DNA from: Geosiphon pyriformis uo1 | Lineage: Eukaryota; Fungi; Glomeromycota | Length of the DNA: 64,000 nt | Assembly: GCA_016748015.1 (NCBI GenBank) | Contig: JAAOMT010000128.1 | Location: forward strand, 317,538 to 381,537 | Reading direction: 5' to 3' | In this document: piece after piece, positions 425 through 35,865 of the stretch | Position numbering within the stretch: position 1 is the stretch's first letter | Layout: every line of letters starts with the position of its first letter | The notes under the pieces: model-generated | The model's input: the letters and a program-made list of their open reading frames with translations, nothing else | Databases searched by the model: none | Told to the model about the DNA's origin: nothing | Made by a program: the position numbers and the translations under genes

Positions 425-1300
425 TGTTATGGTTTAAGAATTTAGCAAAAAGAATCATAAAAATAATACAAACTATTCAATCATAATATAGCACAGTAAT
501 AATCTTAGAAAAGTAATGATTAACATAGTAGCAAACACTATCTTGCAATAGTAGCAAGCACCAGTTCATAATAGCAGTTAACACCAACTGGTGATAGCAG
601 CAAACACCAGATTGAAATATCAAAAAGAAAGTATTACAATGTGTTTTCTCGTAGAACTACAAACATGTATATATACAGTAGTTTTAATATTGGGAAAGAA
701 TCAATCAAGTAATAAAAATCATAACTTATTAAGCAATAGATCCAATTTTATCCAACAAACTCCACTTTAAATCATATTTTCAAATTAAATATTCCAAGAA
801 ACCTTTAAATCAAAAAAAAATGAAAAAGAATATTTAAAACTGAATTATCACAACCCAAAGTATTAAGAAACTTACTTGTATTATTTATTGAATAAAACTA
901 TCATTCATCAACTGAATCTCTTGGAAGAATAATCCTTGATCAAGATTATTCACGTTATTACTAATTGATAAAAGCTTTATTGTAAGAATTAGAAAAAGTG
1001 CTAAAGACCATTAACATTTTGTGTTTCTAGATTAGAGAAACACATCAGGCAATTGCAAGGATAGTTTCAGAAAAGATCTCAGACAGTGGGTAGATTTCAG
1101 TTCAGCCTTTGAGAAGGAGTACATAAACATACACAACAATCAAGAATTGAAGAATAACTTACATTACAACATTAAAAAGAAAGCCTTCAGTATAACAGTG
1201 ACATTATCACACAAATAGAATTGAGAAACTCATGAAAGACTGATTGCAATTAAAACGAGATATCAGCAATTAAATATAACAAGAAAACCATTCCATAACA
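425..1300 (+). repeat. Element A 5' LTR (876 bp)
   Basis: Near-identical to 9178-10054. TATATATA at about 668; short ATAGCAGCAAACACCA-type repeats at about 525-610. Confidence 0.97.
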
Positions 1301-1302
1301 TT

Positions 1303-1318
1303 TGGTGAACCCTACGAG
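1303..1318 (+). promoter_or_regulatory. Primer-binding site of A (TGGTGAACCCTACGAG), possibly tRNA-Trp
   Basis: Begins with TGG 2 nt after the LTR. The complement ...CTCGTAGGGTTCACCA resembles eukaryotic tRNA-Trp 3' ends; tRNA identity is recalled, not searched. Confidence 0.75.
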
Positions 1319-1382
1319 AAAAGAAAATCAAAAAGGAAATAATAATTAGCAATAATTCATTGCTAAAAAGGAAGAGACAAAA

Positions 1383-4300
1383 GTGGTGACAAAAACCTCT
1401 AATCTTACTGTTCTTGAATTCTGCCATGCTATTTACACACAAAATCAAAGTGATCTTGGATTACCAGAAGAGTGTTGTCCAGCAGAATCTGCCCTCACTT
1501 ATTATATCAACGCCAGAATAAATTATCATATAAGAAAGGAAGAAAAACCACATGATGCAAAACTTGGATTGTATAGAGAATTATCACAATACACTACAAA
1601 AGAAGTAGCAGTAATAGCCGCAACTATTGTCAAAATTCATCGAGAAATTGAGCAATATGCCAACAAAAATTTTCTAATATCCACAGGAAACACTAGGGAA
1701 CACGCCAACAAAACCAAAGAAAATTTAGAAACTAATCAGGAAAGTAACCAGCAAAAACTAGGAACACCAGCTTAAACACCAAAGAAAACTGTCACTCAAT
1801 CAATAAAAAAACAACGTATTTATTTACTAGAAGATAAATCATACCATTTTTTACCAGAAAATAAGATACAAATTCTATTAGGAGCTGCATCATCATCAAC
1901 ATCAACTCCACAAATGCCAAAAACTCCTAGTTATACTGATAAAATTAAACAACGTAACTGGGGAGACATACCAATTACAGAAGGATATTCATCACTATTC
2001 CAAAACTCTTTTTTTCAGCCAAAATTTAGAATGGGGTTTGAAAACCGTGAAGAAAAGTCTAAATTGGAATCCAAAAAAGAGACCAGCAAAAAAACAATCA
2101 CAAGACCAGTCACTAGAACAAGCAGCCAGTCCAGAAACCAAGAAACTTGTGATCAAGAAGAAGAACTGAATATAAGGGAAGCCACCTTTAGGAACACTTA
2201 AGGAAATATCATCCCACCTCTTCTTAGACCAATAAGCCCACCAGCAGAAAATGGCAACGAAATGACCACATCATACATTACAAGACTAACAGATTTCTCA
2301 GGAGAAAAAAAAAAACCGGACGTGCACACATAGCTCAGAGAAGCACAAAAAGCCATCCAGGCAAATAACTAGAACAACCAAAGAGCAATTCAAACATTAC
2401 CTTTCTTCCTGAAAGGCACAGCCAACTCGTGGTATCAAAGCCTGGAAACAAAACCCACAAGCTTCACCAAATTTAAAAATGCACTCCTGGAGTATTTTAG
2501 CGACCCAAATGCCATAATCCAACTACAGAACAAATTCAATACTATCAAGCAAAATAGCAGTGAAACTGTCACCCAATACCTTGCTCGATTTAATTGAATT
2601 CGTTGTCAGATTGAAGCAATTGAACAAAAATATTACACTGATCCTCAGGTTTTAAATCAGTTTATTAGAGAATTAAAAAGCAGCATTTTAGGAAGAGTAC
2701 ACCCTGTCCACCCTAATTCCTTACCAGAAACCATTATGCTTGCCAGAGCCCTTGAATCGGCTGAGAAAAAAGCTAACCATAGTCAAATGGTTAACATGGT
2801 AATAGAGGAAAATAAGACAGAAACATTAGAGAAAAGAGTAACGCAATTAGGGGAGGAACTCTCTAAGAAAATAGAAAGTTACCTCATCCCAGATCCGAGA
2901 AGAAATACATACCAACCACCCCAAAAACGCAGCCAGGAAGTCAGCGACAGTTGAAATAATTGCTCGTCATGCCAGGAATTCAGAACAAAAATGCATGCCT
3001 GCCATTTTTGCAAATGCATAGGACATTTGATTAGTCAATGTCGAACACGAATGATGCAGAAAGCACGTGAAAATAATTACTACATGCCACCCCAAATGCC
3101 CAGAAACTAGTACATGCCAATACCACGCCAATATCCCACCACATATCAAAATCAAGGAGCTTATCAGCAACAGTCCATGATAGCCAACCCAAATTGGCAT
3201 CCCAAGGCCTGAAATCAGCCTATGTGGAACCAGAATGTGTTGGTCCAGAGGAATCCAAACCACGCCAAAACCAATCAGCAAACCAATCCAAACTACCAAA
3301 ATTATCAACAAACTTATCTTAATATACCAGAAAATCTGATTATCAGAAATAATGATGGTAGAAACATAAACAGAACCAAGAATTCCTCCAACAAATTAAG
3401 CCAAACAATACCACCAGCAGTTGCCACCAAAGATAGCAGCCTCGCAGCTATTTTTTTTTTTGAATTAAAAGAAAACAAGGCTATGTTCAATGGAGCAGCA
3501 TTGGACAAAAAGTGCCCAATCACTGCTATGTATACGAAAGCCACTGTAAACAATACTCCAATCAAATTTATTTTAGACAGCGGATCCGCTGGAAGCATCG
3601 TAATGCTTCAACTAGTAAACCAACTGGGTTTCAAAGTTGATCATGCCACGACATCCCAAATCATAACAGCTGATGGAAGTACAAAGCTGCCTCATGGCAA
3701 AATCGACTCATTTCCTTTCGAAATTAACAGCATAGTAATACCTACAAAAGTATTAGTAATGGATGCTACACAATATCAAGCATTAGTAGAGAATGACTGG
3801 CTAACAAAAGCCAATGCCACCTTAGACTGGACCACCCAAGAGCTTCTAATCAATTATAATTGCCACCAGGCCAAAATTCCAGCCACCTGTGGCCACTTCC
3901 AAAAACCCAGCACCAACCAAAGACCTACCTTCGAATTTAAGGAAAATCCAACACTACCAGCCATTGAAACCTATCAGCTCTCTTGAGTTGATAACCAAAA
4001 AACAAGACTACCAGTCATACCAATGTGGACCAGCGAAGAAAGATCCGAATGGAACCAGGTAAGTTTATGAAAAAACCACCAGCAATACAGACCAAAACTA
4101 GAATGCTCAGTTTGTAAGAAGAAACTCTCGTCTATGACTGCGTGCAGCACACTAAATAAAGACCCAAGAAACCCCACCCACTACTATTGTAACCATTGTA
4201 ACAATGAAAAATACGGTTACCCAGAAAGACACGAAAAATAGAATGAGGAACTGTGCCTCACTTGTGGAGAACCGTTACCAAAAGGATGTGACTGGAACAA

Positions 4301-7085
4301 CATACCAGACAGAGGAGGAATGTGTGACACAACTTGCCAATACACAATCCTTATCTGTGACTGGGTAAAAGGAGGAATGCCATTCGAAGCAGCATTCAAC
4401 AGAGTGTTAAAAAGACTATAGCACTACCCACATGACGAGGACGAGTTGTACAACACCGCACAAGCCAAAGTAAGAGAAGGAACCGCCAAAGAAATACGAT
4501 GTTGAAAAGAGTCAGCTAAAGTAGCCAACAAAGTCGCCAGTTACAACATGTTCGACCCAGTAGACGAATTTCAGAACTACTACCAACAACTATGCCCCAC
4601 TTGACAAGAGCAAGAACAATACCTCGCCCAAATCAACACTTACTTCTGCAAAAACTGTCTTATCCCATGCCAAAATCAGTGTTGTGAAGAGTGTCAAGAC
4701 GAAAGGGGCTTAGAAAGAAAAATGGAAATTGAGAATCAGCAGTCTCAAAATCAATCAATAAATCAACAAGACTCATCTGACAGTCACAAGTCAGAAAAAT
4801 TTGTAGCTTATACCGACCTAGAACAGATGACTGACATCCGATATTTTGACAACGGGCACTTAGGAATAATACCCAAAAGAGCCTATCTAACCGATGCTGG
4901 ATTCGATCTACGTTATCTAGAAGACCAATCCACAATGTTACCATCCAAGAGCATCATCAAAATTGACCTAAAAACAGTAGTTGAAATTCCGCTAGGAATA
5001 ATGGTTCAAATAGCATCATGATCAAGCCTTGCAAAAAAAAGAATAAGCATTCAAGGAGGAGTAATTGATTCTGGATACACTGGAAATTTGCTACAAAACA
5101 ATTCAGAAAAGCCTTATACCATTGAATCTAAGGAAAAAATTGCACAAGCAATTTTCCTACCATTGGTAAAAATTGGGAAATTTGTGCCAGTAGAAAATCA
5201 TGAGGAATTGTCACAAACAACGAGAGAAACTTTTGGTTTCGGATTGACAGGAAAAGGAATTGAAGCGAATTTCGCTAAAACAATAGAGGAAAAAGGCAAA
5301 GTAATTAAAAATGAACAGCCCATTATGCTCCTACCATATGAAAAATCAGAAATAAGAATAAAAAGGACAATTAAAGAAAAAGACCTAATATTTGAGCCCT
5401 ACCCAGAAATCTGCCAACAGTTTCTTATAAGACTTACTAACTTTTTTATTCCAGCTGATAAAGCTCAATGGATAAAAATTTCTATTGCAAACACCACAGA
5501 AGAACCCGTCTATATTCCGGAAGATACCATCATTGGATACCTTGAAATGGAGCTAGAAAACATGTCAACACTACAAGAAATTCTAAATTTCTCAGAAATT
5601 GCCCTCTACTGTGAACTCACTTCAATAAATTGGCAACAACTGTTAGAATGCTATCAATTTACGCCAGAAGAATTGGCCAAATTAAACATTGGAACAATGG
5701 ATCCTGACCAACAGTAACAATTAAAAGCATTAATTTTAAAATACTCTGATATATTTTCATGAAATGGCAAATTTGGAAGAACCAACTTGGTTCAACACCA
5801 AATTCCCACTGGAGACATCAGATCTAAAAAACAATGCGCTTACTGTATCCCACCAATGGAGCATAATTTTATCAGAGAAGAAGTCCAAAGCATGTTGGAA
5901 AAAAGAATAATACAACCATCAATGAGCCCATGGTCCTCACCAGTTGTTTTAGTAAGGAAAAAGAACAGAAAAATTAGATTTTGTGTTGACTATCACAAAC
6001 TAAACAGCAAAACAACCAAAGACTCATACCCAATACCATTAATTGATGAAATCTTCGACATTTTTGGAGAAGCAAAATGGTTTTCTACACTGGACTTGAC
6101 CAGTGGGTACTGGCAAGTGGAAATGGACCCAAAGGACAGACATAAAACAGCATTCACAACACAAAATGGCAATTATGAGTTCAATGTAATGCCATTTGGA
6201 TTAACAAACACTCCCACAACATTTCAAAGACTAATGGATGTAATTTACTCCAGAATCCTGTGGCAATCCATTGTTGTCTACTTGGATGATACAAATGTTT
6301 TCTCGTCAAAATTCATGGATCATTTCCAATATTTACAACAAGTTTTTGAGAAATTGAGACATGCTGGACTTAAACTAAATCTAGAAAAATGTTTTTTTGG
6401 GAAAAATGAGCTAGCATTTTTAGGACACATAGTTGGAAAAGATGGAATAAAACCAGATCCATCAAAAATAGACAAAGTGAAAAATTTTCCAGTACCTTGA
6501 AATGTTTCAGAAGTTAGAAGCTTTTTAGGACTTGCATCTTACTACCGCCACTTTGTAGAAAACTTTTCAAACATCGCCAAATCTCTTAATTATCTATTAT
6601 CCAAAAATGTGAAGTTTGAATGGACTGAAGCACAACAAAAAGCTTTTGAGTACCTTAGACGAAAGCTCATTGAATCACCAATAATGATCTATCCAAATTT
6701 CAACAAGAAATTCATTTTGGCCACAGATGTCTCTGAAACTGGACTTGGAGCCATTCTGTCACAAAAAGATAATAATAAAAGAGAATGTGTAATTGCTTAT
6801 GCCAGCAGAAGTCTCAGTACGATAGAACAAAACTACGCAGCACATAAACTTGAATGCTTAGCAGTAGTCTGGAGTTGTGTTCACTTTGACACATATTTAT
6901 AGTACCAACCCTTTGAGATTATGACAGATTATAGAGGTCTGGTCTGGTTAAATAACAAGAAAGCACTAAAAGAAAAATACGTCAGATGGTCACAAATATT
7001 AGCACCATACAATTATATTATCAAATACAAAGAAGGTACCAAAAATGCTAATGCTAACTGTTTGTCAAGAATAAGACACACATAA
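1383..7085 (+). pseudogene. gag-pol: A ORF1 polyprotein: N-domain, capsid, CCHC, protease, Cys-rich region, dUTPase, dUTPase-like domain, RT, RNase H; many nonsense codons
   Basis: Fragments 1383, 1914, 2736, 3222, 4722, 5088, 5787 and 6609 all lie in one frame. Motifs: CHFCKCIGHLISQC, LDSGS, AGFDL/GVIDSGYTG/KIAQAIF, RFCVDY, MPFGL, YLDD, TDVS, ECLAVVW. The true start codon is uncertain. Confidence 0.93.
4860..5255 (+). pseudogene. dut: dUTPase domain in element A
   Basis: Motifs DAGFDL, IAS*SSLA (likely CGA>TGA), GVIDSGYTG, KIAQ and RETFGFGLTG match dUTPase motifs I-V. Confidence 0.93.
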
Positions 7086-7114
7086 AAATCACCAACCCAC
7101 CCGCCACAACAACA

Positions 7115-8411
7115 ATGAACAACCACCTTTATAAAAACCTTAGCCAATACTTGGAAACACTACAAATAGATGAAGAAATGCCAGTAAAAAAGCTAATTAA
7201 GCTCCAAAAATTAGCAAAACCCTATTTCATCCAAAATCACATACTTTATTACCGGAATCAACAAAATCCAGATAATCCATTAAGAGTTATAACCACGGAT
7301 GAAAAAGAAACTATCTTATTTAACATGCACTCAGATATTCATTCAGGCCACTTTGGAAAAACAGCAACCATCCAACGTGCAACTAGCTGTTACTATTGGC
7401 CAAAAATAAGTTCAGATATAATCCAATACATAAGAAATTGTGACCCATGCCAACAAAGAAAAGGAGCAAAAACAACGGAATTATTAAGACCAATAAAAGT
7501 TAGACAGCCATTTGACAGAATCAGAATTGATTTAGTTGGACCCTTACCAATAACAACAAGAAACAACTGTTATATTGCAGTAGCTATGAACTATCTCACC
7601 AAATGGCCAGAAGCTAGAGCTATTAAAACAGCTGATGCTATTTCCATAGCTCAATTCGTACATGAAGACTTAATTTGCTGACATGGATATTCACAAGAAT
7701 TGCTATCAGATTAAGGCACACACTTTGTAAACAGCACCTTAAAAGAACTTAGCCAAAAATTTGGAATCAAATGACTACTGTCATCACCATACCACCCTCA
7801 AACAAATGGATTAGTTGAAAGATTTAATCACACATTATGCAAATCACTGGCGAAAATTAGTAACAAACATGAAAAAGAATAGGATTTGTTCATACCAGCA
7901 GTACTACTAGTATATAGAACAGTAAAACAAGATACTACACAATTCACACCATTTGAACTAGTTTATGGAAGAAAAGCCACATTACCAGTTGAACTTACTA
8001 TCCCAACTTATCCAAGTAACACTATCACGGAAGCAACATTCCAGGAAACACTACTTAGAAGAACATACGAATTAATAAGAACTTTAGAAAACAAAAGAAA
8101 AAAAGCAGCACAAAATATTGAACAATCACAAGAACAACAAAAAGTGAGACATGATAACCAGTTACCAAATAATATAATTAGCTACAAAATTGGAGANNNN
8201 NNNNNNNNNNNNNNNNGCATACAAGCTAAGACTAGATGATAAAATATTAAGAAAAGCAGCACATGGTAACCGGCTGAAATTTTATTACAGTAAACCAGTA
8301 ATAACAACAAAAACACCCAGAATTGGAACACAATTACCTTTAATTCTACCAGAACAAATTCCACGAGATTTAGAACCAATAGTTTTAATTGAACATTATT
8401 CAAAAAGATAA
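7115..8411 (+). pseudogene. int: A integrase, separate ORF with its own ATG; contains an assembly gap
   Basis: HHCC (H-x6-H...CDPC), IDLVGP, YHPQTNGLVERFN, TPFELVYGR. Different frame from RNase H, which stops at 7083-7085. Confidence 0.92.
8197..8216. other. Assembly gap (20 N) in the integrase C-terminal domain
   Basis: Run of N. Comparison with the integrases of B and C suggests about 100 nt (the KWDGPF segment) are missing. Confidence 0.95.
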
Positions 8412-8495
8412 TTAATCTTAGATCACAGCAAAAATGATTTAACAACCATAAAAACGCATGCAAAAGATTCCAAAATAGCAGTCAAAATTAAAACA

Positions 8496-9164
8496 ATGAT
8501 ACTTATTCCAGAAAACATCAACAATATAACTCAACAATTAGTTGAAAGCTTACAACAATTAAAATCCGATCTGGAAATCACAGTTAATAGCTCCAAGATA
8601 ACATACATAAAAAGAACAATAGAAAATCCAAAAACAAGAAAAGAACATAATTTTGAACCATATAATATTGCCAAATATAACAACAAATTTATCAGCAAAG
8701 TTATTGAAAAATTAGAGATAGCATTGGGCAATACATTAATAATGGAAGAAATAGAAATAAGTGAATTAACACCAGACACATTTAGCAACTTGAAAACAAA
8801 ATTTCCAATTAATTACTATTATTATCAACTAGGAAAGCACTTAAACATACAAACATTATACTTAAAAGACTTAACTAGAGTGTTTAACAAAACAACTATC
8901 CAACTATTAGAACCTTTTATTGGAAAAACCAACACTACATTTTATTCAAAAACAGTTTACAGAATTTTCAAAGCATTTGAAAACTGTCACAAATTATTGT
9001 TGGACCCAACCATAAACATAATAACAACCAACAGTATTAGATGACTTACCAATTCGCAATTTCAAGAATTACAACAACAAATTAATAACACAGTATTGAA
9101 TCACTATAGTAACTTAAAATTTAATGAAGAAATTAACTTCGATTTCGACGGAGCTCAATCTTGA
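8496..9164 (+). pseudogene. A ORF3, unknown protein of about 222 aa (one internal TGA at 9042)
   Basis: Homologous to the ORFs at the same position in B, C, E and H. Ends FDFDGAQS* overlapping the PPT. Confidence 0.85.
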
Positions 9165-9177
9165 AAGGAGAGGATAA
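9163..9177 (+). promoter_or_regulatory. Polypurine tract of A
   Basis: GAAAGGAGAGGATAA immediately before the 3' LTR. Confidence 0.9.
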
Positions 9178-10054
9178 TGTTACAGTTTAAGAATTTAGCA
9201 AAAAGAATCATAAAAATAATACAAACTATTCAATCATAATATAGCACAGTAATAATCTTAGAAAAGTAATGATTAACATAGTAGCAAACACTATCTTGCA
9301 ATAGTAGCAAGCACCAGTTCATAATAGCAGTTAACACCAACTGGTGATAGCAGCAAACACCAGATTGAAATATCAAAAAGAAAGTATTACAATGTGTTTT
9401 CTCGTAGAACTACAAACATGTATATATACAGTAGTTTTAATATTGGGAAAAAAAACAATCAAGTAATAAAAATCATAACTTATCAAGCAATAGATCCAAT
9501 TTTATCCAACAAACTCCACTTTAAATCATATTTTCAAATTAAATATTCCAAGAAACCTTTAAATCAAAAAAAAATGAAAAAGAATATTTAAAACTGAATT
9601 ATTATAACTCAAAGTATTAAGAAACTTACTTGTATTATTTATTGAATGAAACTATCATTCATCAACTGAATCTCTTGGAAGAATAATCCTTGATCAAGAT
9701 TATTCACGTTATTACTAATTGATAAAAGCTTTATTGTAAGAATTAGAAAAAGTGCTAAAGACCATTAACATTTTGTGTTTCTAGATTAGAGAAACATATT
9801 AGGCAATTGCAAGAATAGCCTCAGAGAAGACCCCAAACAGTGGGTAGATTTCAGTTCAGCCTTTGAGAAGGAGTACATAAACACACACAACAATCAGGAA
9901 TTGAAGAATAACTTACATCGCAACATTAAAAAGAAAGCCTTTAGTATAACAGTGACATTATCACACAAATAGAATTGAGGAACTCACGAAAGACTAATTG
10001 CAATTAAAACGAGATATCAGCAATTAAATATAACAAGAAAACCATTCCATAACA
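9178..10054 (+). repeat. Element A 3' LTR
   Basis: Direct repeat of 425-1300, followed by TSD CTGC. Confidence 0.97.
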
Positions 10055-11790: not shown

Positions 11791-11921
11791 TTTTTTTATT
11801 AACATTTAACGAGTGAAGTCCAAACACTGCCTAGTGCAATACATCATACAAATGATCTAAACTAGGTGTGAATCATGCATTATCTACATGTGACCAGCCA
11901 TTTGGACCAATCAGGACAACA

Positions 11922-15428: not shown

Positions 15429-16523
15429 TGTTACTTGAATAGAAAAACCAATCCAAAGTTATGAAGAAACATAACCAAAACGTGACATAAAACAGAATAA
15501 CGCGCAATAACATTGAATAATGCGTTATAATGTTGGATAACGTGTTATAACGCAGAATAATACAGAATAGTGTGCAATAATGTAGGAAAATGTGTTATAA
15601 TGCAGGATAACACAGAATAACATGTAATAACATCAGATAATGTGTTATAACATAGGATAACTAGCAATAACGTAGAAAAACAAAGCAATAACAGAAACAA
15701 CAAAGCAATAGCTAGCAATAGTGAGACAATTGAAAGCAATCCTGTAAAACCAAAAGAATGTATAAAAGCAAGTAGTTATAGAAGTGAGAAAAAACAGAGG
15801 GAGAAGAAAAAATAGATACAAACCTCTAGACAAGAAATTAAAATATTTATACCCTTTCATCCTTTATTATCTTCCTTATTTCATCTTCTAAAATAAACCA
15901 ATTATTAAAAGAAATCAGAATCACAAATTCATGTTCTCAAACTTTGTGAAATTTATGTGAATTAACCCTTGTCTCATACCTCTGTTCTAGAACAGATGCT
16001 CTTAGCATAACTGCCTCGAACCTATTAATGATTTGGACCAATCACTCTTGATCACGGCAATTAATGATACTAATTTATTTTTTCTCTCTTTTCTTTTTTT
16101 TTTTTTTCTTTTTTTTTTTTTTCTGTCTTATTTTTTGTGGAGCGGCAACATAGTAAAATCAACTGTCTGGAAATAGACTTTGTGATAGCCTGGTAAAAAA
16201 GGGAAGCTCCCCCTAAGTTTTGGATATTAACATTATCTTGTTAGCTTACCAGAAGGGTGAAAAGACAATGCCAGACTCTAACGACTGCGCTCGTTAGTTC
16301 GGAAAAGAAAGCTCACATTTACAAAAAAATGTTGCAATCAATGAAAAACAAACTCTGTGCCTTATAACCAAAGAACTCAACGGATAAAATTTACATCCAG
16401 AAATAGACCTTCAAAGACTGATAATCAAGACTAAGCCAACAGAATTACACGGAAGACATATCATCAATAATTGAGAGCACTAAACATTACCATTTTTTAT
16501 ACTCACCAAGTTTACCCATAACA
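15429..16523 (+). repeat. Element B 5' LTR (about 1095 bp) with a ~10-bp ATAAC-based tandem array at about 15480-15690
   Basis: TGTTAC...TAACA; matches 34766-35861; TATAAA at about 15760. Confidence 0.96.
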
Positions 16524-16525
16524 TT

Positions 16526-16543
16526 TGGTGCTTTCTGTGAGGT
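16526..16543 (+). promoter_or_regulatory. PBS of B (TGGTGCTTTCTGTGAGGT), elongator Met- or Ile(UAU)-type tRNA
   Basis: Begins with TGG; differs by 1 nt from the PBS of C. The complement CCTCAC...AGCACCA fits Met-e or Ile-UAU tRNA ends (recalled, ambiguous). Confidence 0.75.
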
Positions 16544-16869
16544 TATGAATCCACAGAGACAGAGCACCTCCAAAAATACATAAAAGTGGCAACTATTGGA
16601 ACAATAAAAAAGGACCACTTTTCGTATGAAAAAGCACTATTTCAATACTTTCGAAAAAACCTAGGAATACCAGCAGGAACTGCTTATGCAAAAAGTAATT
16701 TTTGTAACTGTATCAATGCAAAAATTGACTGCTTGTTAGGCCGCACAACTAATACAGGAAAACTTGGAGAACAAATCCATCAAAGCTTACTAGAGTACTC
16801 AATAGCCACGACTACCTGAACAATCGCTGAAACTCTGCGCATAATCGATACAGACATTAAATATTATGT

Positions 16870-17752
16870 TGTTACAGGTGATTATTTCTGCTGTTGAATT
16901 AAATAACAAACCCGTAACTTGGTGCTCAAAAGCTATTTCTGTTGAGGCTATTCTGCAGGTGCTGTATCTGAAGGTTTTAATGGATCTGAAGGTTTTGGTT
17001 AAGTCTTTTGTATAATAGACAGAAATTTAATAATGTCGATAATAGAGATATTTTCCAAGAGTTTTCCCAATTTCTTTTTCAGCATGGTGGCCAGATTTAG
17101 TCTGGCAGTTGTGCCTTTCTAGTAAGCTATCCGATAATATATAAAAATCCTACCCGTATTTCTGGATCTTTTACCAGACTATTCTTGATGTCAATAACTC
17201 AGCACTTAATCATTTATCAATTAGTATATAACAACAAATCAAAATAAAATAAAGAAAAAGAAATAAAAGAAAATAAAGAAAGCAAAGAAATAAGCCAAGA
17301 TGATTTGCAGATTAGTATCCCATCAATAGCCGTGATCAAGAGCTATTGTTCCAGTGTGGTCAAATATCAATTACTATCAACATAAAGGGTTGATAGTGGG
17401 AAGTGGATGGAGATATAAAATAATTATTTATTAGATGATTGCATTTTTAGGCTAAGGATTTTGTGGTATCGATTCTGTCTTTTCTGTTTCTAATACTACT
17501 GCTATATATACATAATTGGAATTCCTCAATTCCTTGATTCTTCACAATAGGAATCCTGGAATTTCTGGAATTCTGCGATTCCTTTGAGAGGAATCCTGGA
17601 ATTCTGGAATCCTGCAATTCCTCATTGGGAATCCTGAAATTCTTGGAATCCTGCAATTCCTGAGAGGAATCCTGGAATTCCATATTTATTACGCTTACTT
17701 CTGATTGGCTAATAACTATGCTAATATATTTCCTATATTTCTATGAGTAATA
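16870..17752 (-). repeat. Element C 3' LTR with GGAATCCT/GGAATTCC tandem array (about 17515-17680)
   Basis: Direct repeat of 26167-27049. Confidence 0.96.
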
Positions 17753-17765
17753 TTATTCCCTCCTT

Positions 17766-18395
17766 TTAATATTGAGCTCCATCAAAATCTAACTCATGTA
17801 ATTCCCCCTCTTGAAGTATTTCCTGGATTTTGTTTTCGAGAATTACTTGTGTTATTTGGGTCTGTAATTCTTCAAATTGAGCATTGATGATTTTTCCCAA
17901 TTGATTACTGGTAACCCTATCCATTGCTTTATTGAGCAATATTTCTGGTTTATCTTGAAATGCTGTGTGTATTTGATATATGGCTCGGGCTTGTGTGGAT
18001 AAGTTGTTCTTTCCCACAAAATGTTCTAATTGTTGTAGTATTCTTTTGTCAAATAATCACTTTGTTTTATCTGTATATAGATTCTGGATATTTATGTGTT
18101 GTCCCAAGTAAAAATAACAATAGTTTCGTGAAAATTGTTATATCCACCAATTCCAAGTTTCTTTAGTCAACTCTTGATATAGTAACTTTTTTGTCGATTC
18201 TTTTATTGCTAATTTTACTTTTGCTATAATTTTGTCCACAGTATTTTCAGTTTTCTTCTGTATTCTGAGTTGCAATGTCTTTCTAGTATCTTGATATCAA
18301 ATGGTTTGTTGATTGATTGTAATCTCTATTTCCTGGTGTTGGATTAATTAAAAGAGTTGTTGTGCTAGTAAGTGAATGTTGTCTGTAATTTCCAT
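17766..18395 (-). pseudogene. C ORF3 (about 209 aa, in-frame stops only)
   Basis: MEITDNIHLLAQQLF...YFYLGQHINIQNLY...FVGKNNL...QFEELQ...DFDGAQY* aligns with A ORF3. Confidence 0.85.
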
Positions 18396-18449
18396 TTTTC
18401 TGATATTTTCTGTCACATCTATCATGTCTTTATATATTCTTTTGATGGA

Positions 18450-19832
18450 TCAATTTAACATATTATTGTTGATAGTAATGATTGGTTCCAGATCTCGTGA
18501 AATCTCATCTGGTTGGACTAGTATTCTTTGTACTCCTAATTGTGGAATATTACTGGTAGATGATAGTGTAATATTGTAATATGGTTTTAGTTGATCTCCA
18601 TGTGCTGCTTTGGTTAAAATTTTGTTATCCAATCTTAATTTGTAAGCTCCATTTTCTAGAATTTCTTCTATGTAAAATGGTCCATCCCATTTGGGGTCAA
18701 ATTTTCCACTCCATTGTTTTTCTGCTTTGGTACGATGTAGTAATACTTTGTCTCCGATCTTGAATTCAACTGGTTTGTCTGATAGTTGACTATCGTGTCT
18801 TTCTTTTTGTGTTTCTTGTGACTTTTGGATATTATCAGCTGCTCTTCTTTGTTTGTTTTCCAATGTTTTCATTAAGTCATATGTTCTTTTCAGCAATGTT
18901 TCTTGAAAATTTTCCTCTGTTATTGGTTCAGCTGGATATGTATTAATTTCTCTCTCTACTAGTAATATTGCTATTCTTTCATATACTAATTCAAATAGTG
19001 TTGCTTGTGTAGTATCTTGTTTCATTGTCTGATAAGCAAATAGTACTGATGGTATGAACAAATCCCAATTGTTCTGGTTTTCTTGGCTGAGCTTGGCTAT
19101 TGCTTCACACAATGTTCTGTTGAATCTTTCTACTAATCCATTGGTTTGTGGATGGTATGGTGATGATAGTGGTCTCTTAATTCCGAATCTTTGGCTCAAT
19201 TCTGTTAATGTTCTGTTCACAAAATGAGTTCCTTGGTCTGATAATAATTCTTTTGGACATCCATGTCAACAAATCAAATCCTGATGAATGAATTCGGCAA
19301 TGGATTCTGCATCTGCTCTTTGAATTGCTTTCGCCTCTGGCCATTTAGTGAGATAGTCCATTACTACTGCTATGTATTTGTTTACTCTGCTGGTGATTAT
19401 TAATGGTCCCACTAAATCAATTCCCATACAGTCAAATGGTTGTCCCACTTTGATTGGTCTTAATGATTCACTGGGTCTTGTTCCTTCTCTTCACTGACAA
19501 GCATCACAATTTTGAACATATTGAATGATGTCTGGGTACATTGATGGCCAATAGTATCTTTTTCTAGTCCTTTCCATGGTTGCTTCTTTGTGAAAATGTC
19601 CTGCTGTTGGATTTGAATGCATATTGAATAATATTGTCTCTTTTTCTGGCTCCATAATTACTCTGGTTGGTTAATCTAGATCCCTTCTATTTTTTCGATA
19701 AAGTATATTTTGGTAAGTGATAAAATATTTTGATTGTTGTTTGATACTTCTTCATTCTGTATGAAATAAATTCTCCTTGAACTGTTGAGTGTTTAGATAA
19801 TGTTGCAATTGTTAATATTTTTGTATGTTCAT
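18450..19832 (-). pseudogene. int: C integrase, downstream of the RNase H stop
   Basis: HHCC, GIDLVGP, YHPQTNGLVERFN, KWDGPF, RDLEPII. ATG at 19832; RNase H TAA at 19896-19898. Confidence 0.92.
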
Positions 19833-19895
19833 CTTTTGTTGTATTTTTCCATTGGTATTGTTCTAGTTTTATTATATTTTTGGGTTGAAATGTTC

Positions 19896-22800
19896 TTAGA
19901 TTTGTCTTATTCGCGATAAACCATCAGCATTTTCGTTGTTTTTTTCCTTTTTGTAATGTATAGTATAATTGTATGGTGTGAGTGCCCTTTTCTATCTTGA
20001 CTGTCTTCTATCTCCAAATTCTTGTTTTTGAAGTGATATTAATCCCTTGTGATCTGTGTATACTTCAAACTTCTGGCTCAAGTATTCTTTCCATTTCATG
20101 ACGGCCCAGTATATTGCTAAGTGTTCTTGTTCCGGTGTTCTATAGTTCTTTTCAGCTGGTGTTAAACCTCTGCTGGCATATGCTACTGGATGTTCTCTGC
20201 CGTTCAGTTTTCTCTAAGATAATACTGCTCCCAATGCTTGGCTGGATGCATCAGTGGTGATAATGAATGGTTTGCTGTAATCTGGATAGATCAGTATTAG
20301 AGCTTGGATGAGCTTTTTCCTCAGAATATCAAAAGCTTTTTGTTGACTTTCTGTCCATTCATATTTCACATTTTTGTTTTGTAGTTGATTAAGTGGCTGC
20401 GCTATCTTGGATAAAATGACAATAGTAGCTGGCAAATTCCAAGAATGATTTCAGTTCTGTTATATTGGTCGGCACTGAAAAGTTCTTTACTATCTCTATT
20501 TTCTCTGGATCTGTTTTGATGCCGTCTTTGCTGACTATGTGTCCCAAGAATTTGAGTTCCGTTTTGCCAAAGAAGCATTTTATTGCATTTAACTTTAGTC
20601 CTGCTCTTCTTAGTCTTTTGAACACTTGTTGAAGATAATGAAAATGATCATCAAACGTCTTTGAGAATACATTAGTGTCATCCAAATATACAACTACTGA
20701 TTTCCACAATAAGCCAGTATAAACGATTTCCATTAGCTGTTAGAAAGTTACTGGGGCATTGGTTAAGCCGAATGGCATCACTTCAAATTCGAAATTCTCT
20801 TCTCTAGTAGTAAATGCTGTCTTTTCTTTGTCAGCTAAATTCATGGCTACTTGCCAGTAACCACTGTCCAAATCTAATGTAAAGAATCATTTGTTCCCAC
20901 CAAACGCATCAAATAATTCCTGTATTTGTGGAGTTAGATAACTGTCTCCATGAGTTACACCATTGAGTTTCCTGTAGTCTACACAAAACCGGATTTTTCC
21001 ATTTTTCTTATAGACGAGTACTACTGGTGACAACTATGGGCTCATTGATAATTGAATTAGCCCGTTGTCAAGCATTCTGTTTATCTCTTGACGAATAATC
21101 TCGTGGCTGGCTGGTGGCACTCTGTATGCTCTTTGTTTGATTGGCATTGCATCTCCAGTTTTGATCTGATACTGAATGATGTCAGTTCAGCCAAATTCAT
21201 TTTCACTGGCAAAGATGTCATTAAAATTGTTGAGTAACATCTTGAGCTGCATACATTGGAGTGGATCTAAGTTTCCCATGTTCATTTGTTCCAATTGTTC
21301 TGATTGGAGCAAATTACATTCGTCTTGTCCATAGATTGTCTGTGATGTGATGTCAACATATTCACAAAGTTGTAAAAAGTCTGGAATGGAGTTTGGTGGT
21401 TGGTCTTCTATTTCTGTGGTTAGATATCTGATGGTGGTTCCTTCTGGTATGTTGATGACATTACCAGTGTTGTTGTAGATGGAAATTTTTATGCTGCTAT
21501 AGCTTTTGGCTAGTATGTGGAGATTGATCAACCCAATCTCTCCTGATTCACAAAGGGTTGCTTCTGCTTCAAAAATCTGTTCTTGCTCCTTTTTCTTTTT
21601 TTTTATTGCTAACATGTACTGGCTATATGGTGGAATGGAAATAGCTTGACCAGTTGAGATAATTTCTCCTTGGCCAACAATTTCTTCTTCTGCCATGTTA
21701 ACTGGTACATCTATTCTACCTGTGGATCCGAATCCTTGTATTCCTCTCACCATTATTTCTAATTCCTCCCTCTTTCTCACTGATACTAACTGAGCTATTC
21801 TAACCAGAGGCAGGAATATTGCCTGTGCTATCTTTTCATTGGGCTTTATTACATAGGCCTTTTCTGAGTCATTTTGTAGCATAGTGATAATATTTCCTAC
21901 ATATTTTGTATCAATTATTCCTCTTCTTATATTAATCTCTCTTTTCGCTAAACTACTCCTAGATGCTAATTGAACTATTGTTGTTGCCGAAATTTCTAAT
22001 GCTATTTTCAGATTAATGCAAGTGTGTGAATGCGGTTCTAATTTGATGGCATTTTTTTTCTGGATATCTCAGATCAAACTCTGCATTAGTATCATGCACA
22101 TGTTCTGGTATAATACCTTCCCCATTGTTACTATACTATTTCAACTCTTGTTCCTTGGAGAGATCTGATAGTGCAATGTATTGTTCATAGTTTACATCAG
22201 GTTTTGAATCTGAGTCTGAATCATTTTTGTCGTCATTGCCAATTTAAACAGAGCTTAAACCGTTGTTATTGTCATTATTGTCGGAATTTGAATTGTGATT
22301 GATCGGCGATTCTGATTCTGATGCGCAGCTGCTGATTGGTTTTTCTTCTTCAGGGATTGAGTAAATCATGCGTGGTGGTGGATTGTAAATGAGGTCACAC
22401 TTATTACAATACTGGACATCACAGGGAATTAGGCAGTGTTGACATAGTCGAGCATTTAACTGCTCTAACCGTTGTTTTTGTTCTTCCCTTGTGGATGCTA
22501 ATTCTTGGTAGTGTTCGTAGAATTGTTCTGGATCCAGGAGGTTTATGATGAGTTCTGCATCCCAGTCAAGCTCTAAAGGTTCTGGGGGGTTGTCTTTAAT
22601 CGTTTTTATTTCTTCTGGCATTGCCTCTTCGATTTTGGCAAGTGCTATTCACCAAATTTCATCATCGTCATGTAGACAACTGTCCAGTTACTGCACGGCT
22701 CTTCTCCAGGCTGTTTTTATTGGGGTTCTTTTCCTTACCCAGTCGCTTATTAGAATTGTGTATTAACACGATACGTCACATGTTCCTCTATATCCTGGAA

Positions 22801-25800
22801 TGTTGTTCCACATCCCTTCATCTAGCAGGGTCTCCCCACAAGCGAAACAAGGTTGGTTATCCCATTTTCCTTGCCTTTTTGGTCGTCCAAAGCGTTCGAA
22901 TAAATATGGACGACAGTAAAATTTTGTTGCGGTGTGGTATTCTTCATTGTCGCCACAGCATGTGCCCATTGACGACAATTTCTTACCACAATCGCCACAT
23001 ATAAACTTAGGTCAACGATAGGTAGATTGTTGTGGTATAGTGTGGGTGTTATAAGCGGTGGTGGTTTGGGTGGTCTCTTTTTCTTTTTCTTTTTCTTTAT
23101 TTTCTTTGTCTTTTTCCTATTCCCAGCTTGACGTTGGTTTGCTTTCGTTGTTGTCGGTCCATGTCAGATCATCGGTTTCCCAGGTAAGTTCTTCCTTTTG
23201 TTTCCCTTTTTCCTTGTTGTTGTCATCCCAGGAGAGTATTGGCGGCAGCTCGTTGTGCTCTTCATCAGCCCACGATACTTGGTAGGCTTCCCAGATAAGC
23301 TTTTCTTTCTCCTTCTCCAGTTTGATCAATAGTTTCTCTCTTGGAGACATTTTGAAGTGGCCACATGTGGCCAAAACACATATGTGTTGGTCCTGATACA
23401 TTAGCTGGAGTTCCTGGGTGTTCCAGTCTAATGTTGCATTGACTTTGGATAGCCAGTCATTACCAACGAGAGCTTAGTATTGAGTGGCTTCTATTACTAG
23501 AACTTTAATGGGAGTCACGATGCCATTGACTTCCAAAGGAAACTCGTCGATTTCACTAATTGGAGTTTTGGTTGCTCCATTGGCTGTGATGATTCTGGTG
23601 CTGGCAGTTCAATTAACTTGGCGATCTAATTGATCCATAAGTTGTCATGTAATTATACTGCCAGCTGATCCACTATCTAGGATGAGTTTGATGGGGTAAC
23701 CATCAACTCTGGCATCCGTGTACATTGCTGTTATGGGTTTCTCTTTGAGAGCGGCTCCACTGAATAATGGTATTGGTGTGTTTTCTTCAAGTTCGAAAGG
23801 AAAAATGGCTGCTAGGAATTTGTTGCTAGAGATGGTTGCCGGTGGAATTGTGTTGGTAGGTACGTGCTGATTGAATTCTGTGTTGTTGGATGTGGCATTT
23901 TCTGGGGTAACTAGGAGACTTAAATAATATTGGGAATTTGGGTTTTGGACATGACTGGTATCTAGATTCTGGGTGCGTGGTCTTAATAGTGGGTCTAACA
24001 AACGGGGAATCGGTTGGTGAACAACCATCGCCGATTTCCAGTTTTGAGTGACTTTGGATCGGGGGTTGCCTGATGTCATTTGAGCTGGGTTCTGGGGCAG
24101 TGTTTGAATTGGTTGGGGTTGATAGATGATTTGTGGCTGTGGTTAATATATTACTTGTGGCTGCGGCTGATAAATCGGAGGTTGATATACTGACAGTTGA
24201 TAGATTGGTTGCTGCATCATTGGCAGGTAATTATTCTAATATTGGTCTTGACTTTGATTTGGATAATGATTCGGAGTTTGAAACTGGCAATTGGGGTTTC
24301 GATATTGATTTCCCAATTATTGGTTATTTAAACGCTGGTGACAGTCAATTTGGATATGTCCTTGATTACCACAATAGTGGCAAATACACGTTTCCTGTTG
24401 CCACTGTTGATTGGTTAATGAAGATGGACGCGGTTGATTTTGGCCATAATTAGGATGTCCTTGATTATTGCGTTGTTGTGAAGACTGATAAATGGTGTGA
24501 TTGTCAGCTAAGTATTCTTCCAATCTCTTATTAATTGATTCACTGAACTTCTCCAATTTGGAATCCAATTCAGATAATCCATTCATTACTAGATTAATGG
24601 CTTGGGCATGGTTAGCCTCTGACTCAGCGGATTCAAAATCTCTGGCGCATGTGACTGCATCTTGAAGCGTGCCAGGATGCAATGGACGTATATGTTGCAA
24701 GATGCTGCTGCATAGGCCACGGATAAACTGGTTGAGTATCTGTGGTGCTGTGAAATAGTCGTCGTTAATTGCTTGAATTTGGTGCAAGTTTCAATGGAAG
24801 TGTCCCAGGTAAGTGGTGACTGCTTCAGTTTTTTCTTGTTTCATGGTGGTGAATGTATTGACTAAGCGATTGATACTATTGTTGTTGCTGAAGTATCTTA
24901 GGAATTCCACTTTGAAGGCATTGAAATCTTGTGGTTTATTAACCAAACTCTAATACCATGAATTGGTGGTATCCTTGAAAAAGTAGGGAATGGCTTGTAT
25001 TGCTTAAGTATTATTCTATCTGTTGGCTGCGATGGCCTTTTCTACATCATTCAGCCATATTTGAGCGTCATCCTCTTCACCAGTAAAGTTGTCAAGTTTT
25101 GTGATTGGTGTATAGGCCATTGGATCTAAGTTAGGTAGTTGTGGTGGCTGTTGAAGTGGTTGTTGTTGTTCTGGCTGTTGGGATGGTAGCTGAAGTGGCT
25201 GCTGTATGGGTTTGGCTATGGGATTAATTGGTGGTTGATCAATGACGATTACTGGAGATAAGTTTTGCTGATTAATTAATTCGGGTTTTTGATTTCTTTG
25301 ATTTGGTGGTGTTTGAATATTCGGAGTTTTGATTTCCAGATTTTCTAACTGTTGCTGAGTTTAAAGGTTCAGAGTTTCAATTTCTGGGTTTTCAGAGATC
25401 GGGTGTAGGTAAGTGAATTCTTGATCCTCTGATTCTTCTTCCTCCTTTTCTGATTCTGCTGCTTTTCATGGATCAGAAATTCCAAAATCTGGTGGAGGTG
25501 GTGGTAATCGAAGTCCTGATGGGGTTGATGATCGCAAATTAAATCCCTCAAAGTATTTGCCATATGGTCTTAACAATTCTGTTTTCTTTTGTCTACTTTG
25601 GAATGAGAATCATCCAAATACTGATGTTACAGTTGATGAAAACGCATCAGTTGATGATATGTTGATGGCACTTCCAGGTGTATAGTGGTAGGATAGGTTG
25701 CTTGGGAATTCAACTCTGTTTTTCTTCTAAGCAGGTGGCTGTATTTTTCGGGGTGTTACTGCTAGTGTTTGTAATTTTCTCTTGTCTTTACTAGCGTATG

Positions 25801-26104
25801 TAATTGGATATCTTTGTTGAGTGTAGTGTTCAATTTCTTTGTTGATCTCAGTGATGATGGATGCAAAATTATGGTTTGTTAGTAGGTTGGTGTTTTGAAT
25901 TAATTCTTTATATAAAGTTTCTCTTGCTAATTCAGTATTCATTGGTGTTCCTAATAAAGAGGAAATCTTTTCGTTAACGTAGAAATTAAAGGCTGATTCG
26001 GTGGATATATGATTGTGGTTTAATCCCAAGTATTGACAATAGTGTTGAAATAAGGATTTTGCAAATTTTAAATGGTTTGCTCCTATGTTTTCTGATTCTG
26101 CCAC
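19896..26104 (-). pseudogene. gag-pol: C ORF1 polyprotein (gag, PR, Cys-rich, dUTPase, RT, RH)
   Basis: CHYCGNQGHIQIDC, LDSGSAGS, CQHCLIPCDVQYCNKC, KIAQAIF/RGIQGFGSTG, YLDD, TDAS. Confidence 0.92.
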
Positions 26105-26146
26105 TTTTGGTTTGGTGTTGTCAGTGCTGGTTTTCTGTAGGATTAT

Positions 26147-26164
26147 ACCTCACAGAGAGCACCA
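26147..26164 (-). promoter_or_regulatory. PBS of C (TGGTGCTCTCTGTGAGGT)
   Basis: 18-nt motif beginning TGG, 2 nt from the 5' LTR. Confidence 0.85.
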
Positions 26165-26166
26165 AA

Positions 26167-27049
26167 TGTTACAGGTGATTATTTCTGCTGTTGAATTAAA
26201 TAACAAACCCGTAACTTGGTGCTCAAAAGCTACTTCCATTGAAGCTGTTCTGCAGGTATTGTATCTGAAGATTTTGATGGATCTGAAGGTTTTGGTTGAG
26301 TTTTTTGTATAATGGACAGAGATTCAATAGTGTCAATAGTAGAGATATTTTCCAAGAGTTTTCCCAATTTCTTTTTCAGCATAGTGGCCAGATTTAGTTT
26401 GGCAGTCGTGCCCTTCTGGTAAGCTATCCAATAATATATAAAAATTCTATCTGTATTTCTGGGTCTTTTACCAGGCTATCTTTGACGTCAATAATTCAGT
26501 GCTTAATCGTTTATTAATTAGTATATAACAACAAATCAAAATAAAATAAAAAAAAATAAATAAAAAAAAATAAAGAAAGCAAAGAAATAAGCCAAGACAA
26601 TTTGCAGATTAGTATCCTGTCAATAGCCATGATCAAGAGCTATTGTTCTAGCATGGTCAAGTATCAATTACTATCAACATGAAGGGTTGATAGTGAGAAG
26701 TGGATGGAGATATAAAATAATTATTTATTGAATGATTGCGTTTCTAGGCTAAGGATTCTGTGGTATCGATTCTGTCTTTTTTGTTTCTAACACTACTGCT
26801 ATATATACATAATTGGGATTCCTCAATTCCTCAATTCTTTACGATAAGAATTCTGGAATTCCTGGAATCCTGTGATTCCTTTGAGAGGAATCCTGAAATT
26901 CTGGAATCCTGCAATTCCTTATTGGGAATTCTGAAATTCCTGGAATCTTGCAATTCCTGAGAGGAATCCTAGAATTTCACATTTACTATGCTTACTTCTG
27001 ATTGGCTAATAATTATGCTAATATATTTTCTATATTTCTATAAGTAACA
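26167..27049 (-). repeat. Element C 5' LTR
   Basis: TG...CA ends. CCAAT (about 27001-27005) and TATATATA (about 26800) on the minus strand. Confidence 0.96.
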
Positions 27050-32566: not shown

Positions 32567-33934
32567 ATGGACACACTTACTTATCAACGACTACATCAGT
32601 ACCTATCGACACTACATTTCAAGGAGATATTATCTCAACAAAAACAGAGTACCATATGAAAACAAGCCCGAAATTATTTTATTCAAGACAACCAACTATA
32701 TTAACGAGAACGCCGAAACCACCCCAACCCACAACAACTAATCACGGACAGTGAAAGAAAAACTATACTATATAGTGTGCACTCAGATCCGACTGCAGAA
32801 CACTTTAACAAAGACACTACTCTCGAAAGAACACTAAACTTATACTATTGGCCAACGATGCACAAAGACATTTTCAAATACATGCTCAATTGTGATGCAT
32901 GCCAGTAAAGAGGAGGAGCAAGATCAACAGAACCACTTTGACCCATTCCAGTTGGAAATCCATTTGATAGAATTGGGATCAATTTGGTTGGACCTCTTTC
33001 AATTACATCCCAAGAAAATTACTATATTGCTGTAGCTGTAGACTATCTTACAAAATGGCCAAAAGCCAGAGCAATCCAAGTGGCTGACGCCAAAACAGTC
33101 GCCAAATTTGTGCATCAAGACCTAATTTGCCGACATGGATGTCTGAAAGAATTATTATCTGATCAGGAAACATATTTCATTAATAATACACTGACAAAAC
33201 TAAGCCAATGGTTTGGAATAAAGAGACTCTTATCATCACCATACCACCCACAAATGAATGGACTGGTAGAACGATTTAACAGAACACTGTGCAAAGCACT
33301 AGCAAAAATAAGTCATGAAAACAGACAAGAATGGAACTTATTCATACCTTCTGTACTCTTTGCATACCGAACATTGAAACAAAATACGACTCAGTTCACA
33401 CCATTCAAACTAGTCTATAGAAGAAAAGCTATGTTACCAATTGAACAAGTGATACCATCATACCCAACAGAAACAATCAATGAAAAGAATTTTGAGGCTA
33501 CCTTATACCAAAGAACGTACTAGCTAATGGAAATGTTGGAAAACAATCGAAAAACAGCAGCTGGCAATATTAGTCACGCTCAAGAACGACAAAAAGAAAG
33601 ACATGATAAACACCTATCAGAACAACCAATGGAATTCAAAATTGGAGACCAAGTACTGTTACATTGTACAAAAACTAAGAAACAGTGGAGTGAAAAGTTC
33701 GACCGAAAGTGGGACAGTCCATTCCACATACACGAAGTGTTAGGAAATGGAGCTTACAAATTACGATTGGAAGACAGGATTTTAAAGAAAGTAGTGCATA
33801 GAAATTGGTTAAAAATTTATCATGTAAAACAGGAATCATCATCATCAGTACCTCAACTAGGAACACAAATTTCATTAATTAGACCAGAAGATATACCACA
33901 AGATCTGGAACCAATCATTGTCATCAAAACATAG
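32567..33934 (+). pseudogene. int: B integrase, separate ORF 10 nt after the RNase H stop (+1 frame)
   Basis: MDTLTYQRLHQYL..., H-x6-H...CDAC, YHPQMNGLVERFN, KWDSPF, QDLEPII. Confidence 0.92.
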
Positions 33935-34014
33935 ACAATGGGCAGCAAATTAAATTGGGAAATTCAAATATATATAGCATCCGAAAAGCAGCAAGAAATA
34001 ATAGAAATTTTAAC

Positions 34015-34751: not shown

Positions 34752-34765
34752 AAAGAGAGGGATAA

Positions 34766-35861: not shown

Positions 35862-35865
35862 GTGG

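Follow-up and report, generated by a model that had tools for sequence, protein, structure and literature searches.

A conserved RNA hairpin with a palindromic loop in the LTRs of three Ty3/gypsy families of Geosiphon pyriformis, a candidate kissing-loop element

A 25-nt hairpin with an 8-bp stem and a 9-nt loop built around TGATCA is present in the long terminal repeats (LTRs) of three families of Ty3/gypsy retrotransposons (A, B and C) in the stretch of 64,000 nucleotides analysed here (the window). By its stem changes and its unchanged loop the hairpin is a real, conserved RNA element, and its function is assigned from sequence. With some reserve, and at somewhat less than even confidence, we take it to be a loop-to-loop kissing signal of the anticodon type that would serve RNA dimerisation or packaging.

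Host elements and hairpin copies

The window is a nest of decayed retroelements in which Pfam domains (protease, dUTPase, RT, RNase H and integrase) occur in Ty3/gypsy order, together with a LINE. Elements A, B and C are delimited by LTR pairs, primer sites, polypurine tracts and 4-bp target duplications, and E, G and H are remnants. The order protease-RT-RNase H-integrase, LTRs with TG..CA ends, a primer-binding site, a polypurine tract and a target duplication all agree with Ty3/gypsy elements; the dUTPase is an addition.

425..10054, plus strand: element A, Ty3/gypsy (protease, dUTPase, RT, RNase H, integrase), decayed, with a 4-bp target duplication
425..1300, plus strand: 5' LTR of A, 97% identical to the 3' LTR (9178-10054)
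1303..1320, plus strand: primer-binding site of A, unlike that of B and C
15429..35861, plus strand: element B, LTRs 15429-16523 and 34766-35861 (91% identical), inserted in the LINE and split by C
16870..27049, minus strand: element C, LTRs 26167-27049 and 16870-17752 (91% identical), nested in ORF1 of B
11850-15428 and 35862-39000, minus strand: LINE (endonuclease, RT, RNase H), split by B, itself split by C

The three elements share 59-61% pairwise identity in the integrase and 58-62% in RT-RNase H. Their best named protein matches are Geosiphon pyriformis proteins (identities of 71-77% among the top four integrase hits; 120 of the 120 listed ORF1 hits), a genome reported to consist of LTR elements to about 41% (41.2%) (PMC11952901). 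An extra ORF lies between the integrase and the 3' LTR at 8412-9044 and 33883-34750 of the window and also at 2450-3100 of the relative L022; that of A (8412-9044) had no match in Pfam. Another repeat family, made of 12-bp tandem units rich in TGATCA-like words, occupies 11664-11814, 43490-43560 and 51871-52033.

Nine copies or remnants of the hairpin are considered here:

927..951, plus strand: hairpin, family A, 5' LTR; stem 927-934/944-951, loop 935-943, palindrome 937-942
9681..9705, plus strand: hairpin, family A, 3' LTR; followed by TACTAAT at 9713-9719
16039..16063, plus strand: decayed hairpin of the B 5' LTR; 5 of 8 pairs left, intact loop
35376..35400, plus strand: hairpin, family B, 3' LTR; intact, closing pair U-G
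17324..17348, minus strand: hairpin, family C, 3' LTR; intact
26621..26645, minus strand: hairpin, family C, 5' LTR; last loop base T
44825..44849, plus strand: decayed hairpin, LTR G (C-like); 7 of 8 pairs
45446..45470, minus strand: decayed hairpin, LTR of element E (C-like); 6 of 8 pairs
60083..60107, minus strand: decayed hairpin, LTR of element H (B-like); 7 of 8 pairs

An earlier reading made from the sequence only (the sequence-only reading) had placed the hairpin in six copies of A, B and C, and indeed, every arm and loop was found there; the remnants that it mentioned in G, E and H were also located, with 6 to 7 of 8 pairs each. The loop of families A, B and C reads CUUGAUCA-N and is followed downstream by UACUAAU, and in A it contains an 8-nt palindrome. 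All loop changes in the G, E and H remnants are C>T or G>A. The final loop T of the C copy at 26621-26645 is likely decay as well, because the site is a CpG position with T in 44% of the B-family depth.

In the window, CTTGATCA is found 12 times where 2.79 copies would be expected, a count that none of 100 shuffles reached. There are 5 complete 8-bp hairpins that hold TGATCA in the 2+6+1 register, compared with a mean of 0.05 in 60 shuffles, the 5 representing only three independent families. For the A LTR alone, an analytic, post hoc estimate gives 3e-6 expected occurrences of the same loop with a full stem, and 5e-9 (likewise post hoc) if TACTAAT is to follow.

Stem, loop and LTR sequence in and beyond the window

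In the stems of A, B and C, four of the eight pairs are changed on both sides, with one wobble. The covariation score was 0.375 compared with 0.216 ± 0.047 in the controls, with 0 of 500 shuffles as high and all slid controls lower; only three independent lineages support the covariation. This control ignores relatedness and does not, therefore, yield a P value. In the B and C stems, the U-G pair that closes them can form on the sense strand only. Thus, the claim that the stem bases differ while pairing is kept holds, and the compensatory changes together with the sense-strand G-U pair argue for a conserved RNA structure. The hexamer had been described as constant, and it is in fact invariant in three of three families; as it never varies, it has no covariation of its own. 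By chance, a palindrome is expected in about 2% of cases in the fixed register and in 9% in any register.

The LTRs had been called otherwise dissimilar. This is correct for A, whose alignment with B and C was not significant (55 vs 62 and 52 vs 64), but not for B and C, whose LTRs align from 5 nt 5' of the hairpin onwards with a score of 149 against a shuffled maximum of 45. Identity between the B and C LTRs is 61.5%, and the hairpin, with 23 of 25 positions identical, is their most conserved 25-nt window (0.92 vs 0.615, in an alignment anchored on the hairpin). An anchor-free test for 20-mers shared among the LTRs did not beat shuffles.

Variation within families was read from contigs; the best DNA run, X1, possibly stems from the same sample as the window, so these variants describe sister copies and are not independent support. 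The A hairpin (1539 contigs) has two variants at a frequency of at least 5%, both C>T. In the B hairpin (837 contigs; variants up to 35395, which takes in little of the 3' arm), changes of the deamination type were found, among them C35395T at 25%, plus T35380C at 8%. T35380C with C35395T hints at U-G and C-G variants of the pair involved, its partner column lying outside the positions covered. In context, the predicted pairing of the hairpin is 0.92 for the 3' copy of B and 0.82 for the 3' copy of C; it does not exceed 0.5 for the 5' copy of C in a long context, and the A hairpin competes with another predicted fold (pair probability of 0.2-0.5).

Beyond the window, the best 80 of 450 metagenomic relatives (40-56% identity) were examined. 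Their TGATCA sites had a stem of at least 6 bp in the 2+6+1 register in 0 of 108 cases. A covariance model of the hairpin returned nothing below an E value of 3.4 in these 80 loci and, with filters off, nothing below 1.2 in 22 of them. In the 22 relatives with a primer-defined LTR end, TACTAAT was absent from the last 700 nt of the LTRs (0 of 22), and hairpins with a palindromic loop were not enriched in the LTR ends (2 vs 0-7 in shuffles), with a filter that skips AU-rich stems such as that of A. The nearest relative, L022, ends about 60 nt past its TATA box and is therefore uninformative on the hairpin. Because none was found in the more distant relatives, the hairpin is clade-restricted as far as seen. 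Only weak loci (0, 4 and 1) came out of protein scans of IMG/VR. Pattern matches in IMG/VR (0 of 16 with 8 pairs, 7 at best) and a single one in GTDB, a bacterium with only partly paired arms, were treated as chance. Rfam 15 covariance models produced four matches in the window, all with E values of 2.6 or worse and none at a hairpin; tRNA-like and ribozyme readings were rejected, as neither ARAGORN nor Rfam gave a match.

A conserved 7-bp hairpin with a variable loop spans the 3' end of the LTR in L025 (9549-9569), L041, L050, L056, L058, L073 and L088, and L052, L072 and L081 have different terminal hairpins. The 7-bp hairpin resembles the retroviral U5-IR stem.

Place in the leader and start of ORF1

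The motifs around the hairpin and the putative start of ORF1 are as follows:

665..675, plus strand: TATA-like box of A, 262 nt 5' of the hairpin, aligning with the boxes of B and C
711..716, plus strand: AATAAA, present in both A LTRs, putative poly(A) signal
35229..35234, plus strand: AATAAA of B, 147 nt 5' of the hairpin; TATA-like box at 35098-35105
17427..17432, minus strand: AATAAA of C, 84 nt 5' of the hairpin; TATA-like box at 17503-17513
959..965, plus strand: TACTAAT, branch-site-like, after the A hairpin
35405..35475, plus strand: TACTAAT (35405-35411) and pyrimidine tract of B
17311..17317, minus strand: TACTAAT downstream of the C hairpin, with a second copy past the U-rich tract (17220-17226)
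1383..1385, plus strand: GTG in an AAA-GTG-G context, putative ORF1 start of A
16586..16588, plus strand: GTG, putative ORF1 start of B, +63 from the LTR end
26102..26104, minus strand: GTG, putative ORF1 start of C, +63 from the LTR end

The hairpin is 165-278 nt 3' of the TATA-like box and 84-216 nt 3' of AATAAA, which is present in both copies of each LTR. From the TATA-like box to the LTR end, A, B and C measure 633-763 nt, compared to at most 414 nt in 21 of the 22 relatives with a primer-defined end, some of which are near-duplicates. As judged from these motif positions, the hairpin is therefore probably part of an expanded U5, two to three times as long as in the relatives, and would be present once in the RNA, in the 5' leader. 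It would thus lie within the transcript, in agreement with the RNA signal proposed by the sequence-only reading, which had put the hairpin downstream of the TATA-like box.

What that reading had missed is TACTAAT, which follows the stem after 4-7 nt in all three families and is present or decayed in nine of nine LTRs of the window. A long U-rich tract, likewise missed, is found downstream of the hairpin in B, C, E, G and H but not in A. C and E have a second TACTAAT; since that of C matches the single copy of A over 14 nt, A may have lost the tract by a deletion between repeats. An ORF inside the LTR was ruled out by stops common to the copies.

Several other features of the long leaders were observed. 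In B and C, a U5 sequence is complementary to the element's own primer-binding site (16473-16484 with 16524-16535; 26216-26224 with 26157-26165, minus strand), with a predicted pairing of 0.89-0.97, traces in E and H and none in A, and a second complement is located just 3' of the primer site. Further family-specific hairpins occur in both LTR copies (1021-1043, 26670-26694, 35557-35591 and 16278-16297). B and C also have the blocks CTGGTAAAA and TAGCTTACC in common (35522-35590 and 26416-26474), which are partly complementary to each other; on the antisense strand, TAGCTTACC is a strong splice donor by sequence.

ORF1 is homologous in A, B and C (E values of 1e-15, 2e-10 and 3e-4), and across 120 annotated relatives its first 100 codons contain no column with an in-frame AUG. 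The single Met of ORF1 in the window is Val in 107 of 119 relatives. AAA-GTG-G, a strong context, is found where homology begins in all three elements, and the position is Val in 112 of 117 relatives; therefore, ORF1 probably starts at a GUG and not at an AUG. The GTG of B is preceded, at a distance of 2 nt, by the stop of an upstream ORF in another frame. Of the 22 relatives, 9 have an AUG 23-84 nt past the LTR and 2 a later ORF; the other 11 gave no ORF, mostly as little sequence follows. Many gene models contain a 24-nt GT..AG "intron" over the primer site and a stop codon (26143-26170, minus strand), which is likely a prediction artefact, and P0153, annotated as an Argonaute-domain model that includes ORF1 of family C, is probably a chimeric prediction. 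Since ORF1 would begin almost at the primer site, signals of the leader would have to sit in the LTR.

Possible functions and comparison with known systems

The hairpin likely folds in the 5' leader of the genomic RNA of the three families, where loop-to-loop pairing of two RNAs, for dimerisation and packaging, is the role that we prefer. Its loop opens with C-U-U-G, a YUNR motif; if the chain made a U-turn past base 2, precisely the six bases UGAUCA would be stacked and presented. A pair of these loops would then kiss via 6 bp (8 bp in A), and nucleocapsid would turn the kissing pair into an extended duplex, so that the element would act like a retroviral dimerisation initiation site (DIS) but with a loop of the anticodon type and not of the HIV type; UACUAAU and the U-tract downstream would be a separate, neighbouring signal. 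Indeed, CUUG is at the 5' side of the loop in six of six copies of A, B and C. YUNR is a reported signature that promotes first kissing contacts (PMC4872101, PMC3664830), and palindromic loops are described as drivers of retroviral dimerisation (PMC5874298). Kissing is preferred since the YUNR start and a turn that presents the palindrome account for loop size, register, 5' flank and palindrome, and since a role in a leader that has moved into U5 would agree with it. What speaks against it is that no palindrome-to-palindrome change is seen and that UACUAAU and the U-tract are left unaccounted for. A caveat is the shortness of YUNR, and what is known of it comes mainly from antisense RNAs of bacteria. 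Moreover, the UGAUCA kissing duplex is weak, with -5.0 kcal/mol (rank 37 of 64 palindromes) compared to -10.9 and -7.9 kcal/mol for the HIV hexamers. Strong kissers obtained by selection are reported to have at least four G-C pairs (about 76% G-C) (PMC4872101).

The shared palindrome had also been proposed to allow co-packaging and recombination between families. The loops are predicted to kiss across families with -6.4 to -6.7 kcal/mol. Extended duplexes are predicted at -23.8 to -24.6 kcal/mol for homodimers and -14.3 to -16.1 kcal/mol for heterodimers and would thus favour the own family by about 8-10 kcal/mol. Trees of RT (support of 99) and integrase (60), calculated for A, B, C, E, H and 8 of the 80 metagenomic loci (H without an RT row), both place B together with C, which is also the grouping of the LTRs and primer sites. 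Because of this agreement, recombination between families is not supported; none is visible.

A strong rival, although rather unlikely in itself, is that the hairpin binds U2 snRNP. The loop sequence CUUGAUC would pair with U2 snRNA 25-31, the later partners of U6 in helix Ia, while GAUACUAAU downstream would pair with the adjacent branch-recognition stretch 33-40 and the U-tract would bind U2AF. The leader would thereby capture or stall U2 so as to regulate splicing, keep down poly(A) addition in the 5' LTR, or direct export. Such binding would account for the fixed 5' CU, TACTAAT and the U-tract, and a 7-nt match beside the branch helix has a chance of roughly 1e-3 before other RNAs are allowed for. 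We take the base at U2 position 26 to pair with the loop as well. Loop bases 1-5 and GAUACUA both pair with human U2 27-51, as implied by a published antisense oligonucleotide (PMC4028248), so that the branch sequence is complementary to U2, and a helix Ia role is documented for G25 and 25-28 (PMC13019295); these U2 bases are reported to pair with U6 (bioRxiv 2025.03.12.642709). However, colinear pairing would require the opposite order of the two motifs, so that a pseudoknot-like geometry would be needed, loop base 8 is unexplained, A has no long U-tract, and the pairing was read against human U2, which may differ from that of the host. Inspection of the LTR alignments across families revealed neither a conserved donor nor a conserved acceptor, the AG and upstream donor of a U2-type 3' splice site. 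The idea is post hoc and no precedent was found in the literature; in addition, a chance 7-mer 3' of the B primer site resembles what we take to be a U6 box, which counts against it.

In a combined version, which we consider quite unlikely, the loop would mimic the U6 strand of helix Ia and UACUAAU would be a decoy branch site, the two covering 15 of 16 consecutive U2 bases. Since the loop is also a palindrome, the RNA would switch between U2 binding in the nucleus and kissing in the cytoplasm, with ORF1 translated from the conserved GUG.

It is likewise doubtful that the hairpin is a protein-binding site without RNA-RNA pairing, either a packaging signal for Gag or a translation element for the long leader and the AUG-less ORF1, in which case the palindrome would be incidental. 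UACUAAU would presumably be a second protein site of the SF1/BBP type. Protein sites usually combine a constant loop with a covarying stem, as is the case here, and ORF1 is homologous across A, B and C and lacks an in-frame AUG column in the 120 annotated relatives. Furthermore, the long leader and the AUG-less ORF1 occur together, and both are absent in the nine relatives with an AUG 23-84 nt past the LTR. However, the palindrome (chance of 0.02-0.09) and the U2 match would both have to be accidents, and the hairpin is 400-520 nt 5' of the GUG.

A 3'-end processing signal, with cleavage at or just past the hairpin, the U-tract as downstream element and the hairpin in R at both RNA ends, is very unlikely. 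It would fit the U-rich tract immediately 3' in B, C, E, G and H, but AATAAA is 84-216 nt upstream, the spacing from TATA to AATAAA is as in the relatives, and A has no tract. A site in double-stranded DNA, be it TGATCA in an inverted repeat for a dimeric factor or a cruciform, is highly improbable: TGATCA is a palindrome of DNA within an LTR and the 25-mer of A is one base short of a perfect palindrome, but the arms vary and still pair, the stems of B and C are closed by T-G, in all three families the axis of symmetry of the hexamer is shifted by half a base from that of the arms, and the distance from the TATA-like box is 165-278 nt. That the hairpin has no function and reflects shared ancestry and chance is scarcely credible: only three independent lineages are represented, A is unalignable with B and C elsewhere and variation within families is nearly all deamination decay, but loop, pairing and TACTAAT were kept while the flanks became unalignable (5e-9 expected), and none of the 16 chance pattern matches had 8 pairs.

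RNA dimerisation and the choice of RNA for packaging are unsettled in Ty3/gypsy elements, and the 25-nt hairpin is a directly testable candidate outside yeast, within a narrow clade of three lineages known from sequence. If kissing is correct, it would be a dimer signal of a retroelement based on an anticodon-type U-turn; if U2 binding is correct, it would be a spliceosome decoy of a kind that was not found described. In the openly accessible literature covered, neither the motif nor a U2-binding LTR element nor a GUG-initiated retrotransposon gag was found described.

UACUAAU matches the strict yeast branch consensus UACUAAC in 6 of 7 positions (PMC13019295), and as at a spliceosomal branch site a pyrimidine tract follows in B, C, E, G and H. 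In contrast to a branch site, no conserved YAG or donor is nearby, and the preceding hairpin loop is complementary to the neighbouring U2 segment. With the YUNR loops of bacterial antisense RNAs the hairpin has the Y-U-N-R loop start in common, but those loops meet a separate, complementary RNA, whereas the bases presented by the putative U-turn in Geosiphon are self-complementary and belong to a eukaryotic retroelement. The RNA of LTR retrotransposons is reported to be dimeric, palindromes (PAL) are proposed to link Ty1 dimers, and an early model of Ty3 dimerisation, a bridge of primer tRNA, is faced with contrary data; the sections of this source available to us describe no LTR hairpin with covarying stem and palindromic loop for Ty1 or Ty3 (PMC4974528).

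The HIV-1 DIS shares with the hairpin the 9-nt loop, the 6-nt palindrome in the 2+6+1 layout noted by the sequence-only reading, a location in the leader (only probable for the Geosiphon hairpin) and a possible extended duplex. The DIS belongs to Psi, outside the LTR; it is GC-rich, its centre is G-C and purines flank it, whereas the Geosiphon hairpin has an A-U centre, four A-U pairs out of six and CU as 5' flank and is inside the LTR. UGAUCA does not follow the HIV-1 rule of two central G-C pairs and at most one A-U pair, nor are there unpaired flanking purines on both sides, as the 5' flank is CU in all families and the 3' flank is A in A and C in B and C. In HIV-1, replication is reported to be poor in mutants whose palindrome has two or more A-U pairs, and the flanking purines are reported to matter (PMC5874298). 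Beyond loop size, the proposed likeness to the HIV-1 DIS is thus unsupported, because the GC-rich centre and the flanking purines are absent. The element may work like a DIS without being of the HIV-1 type.
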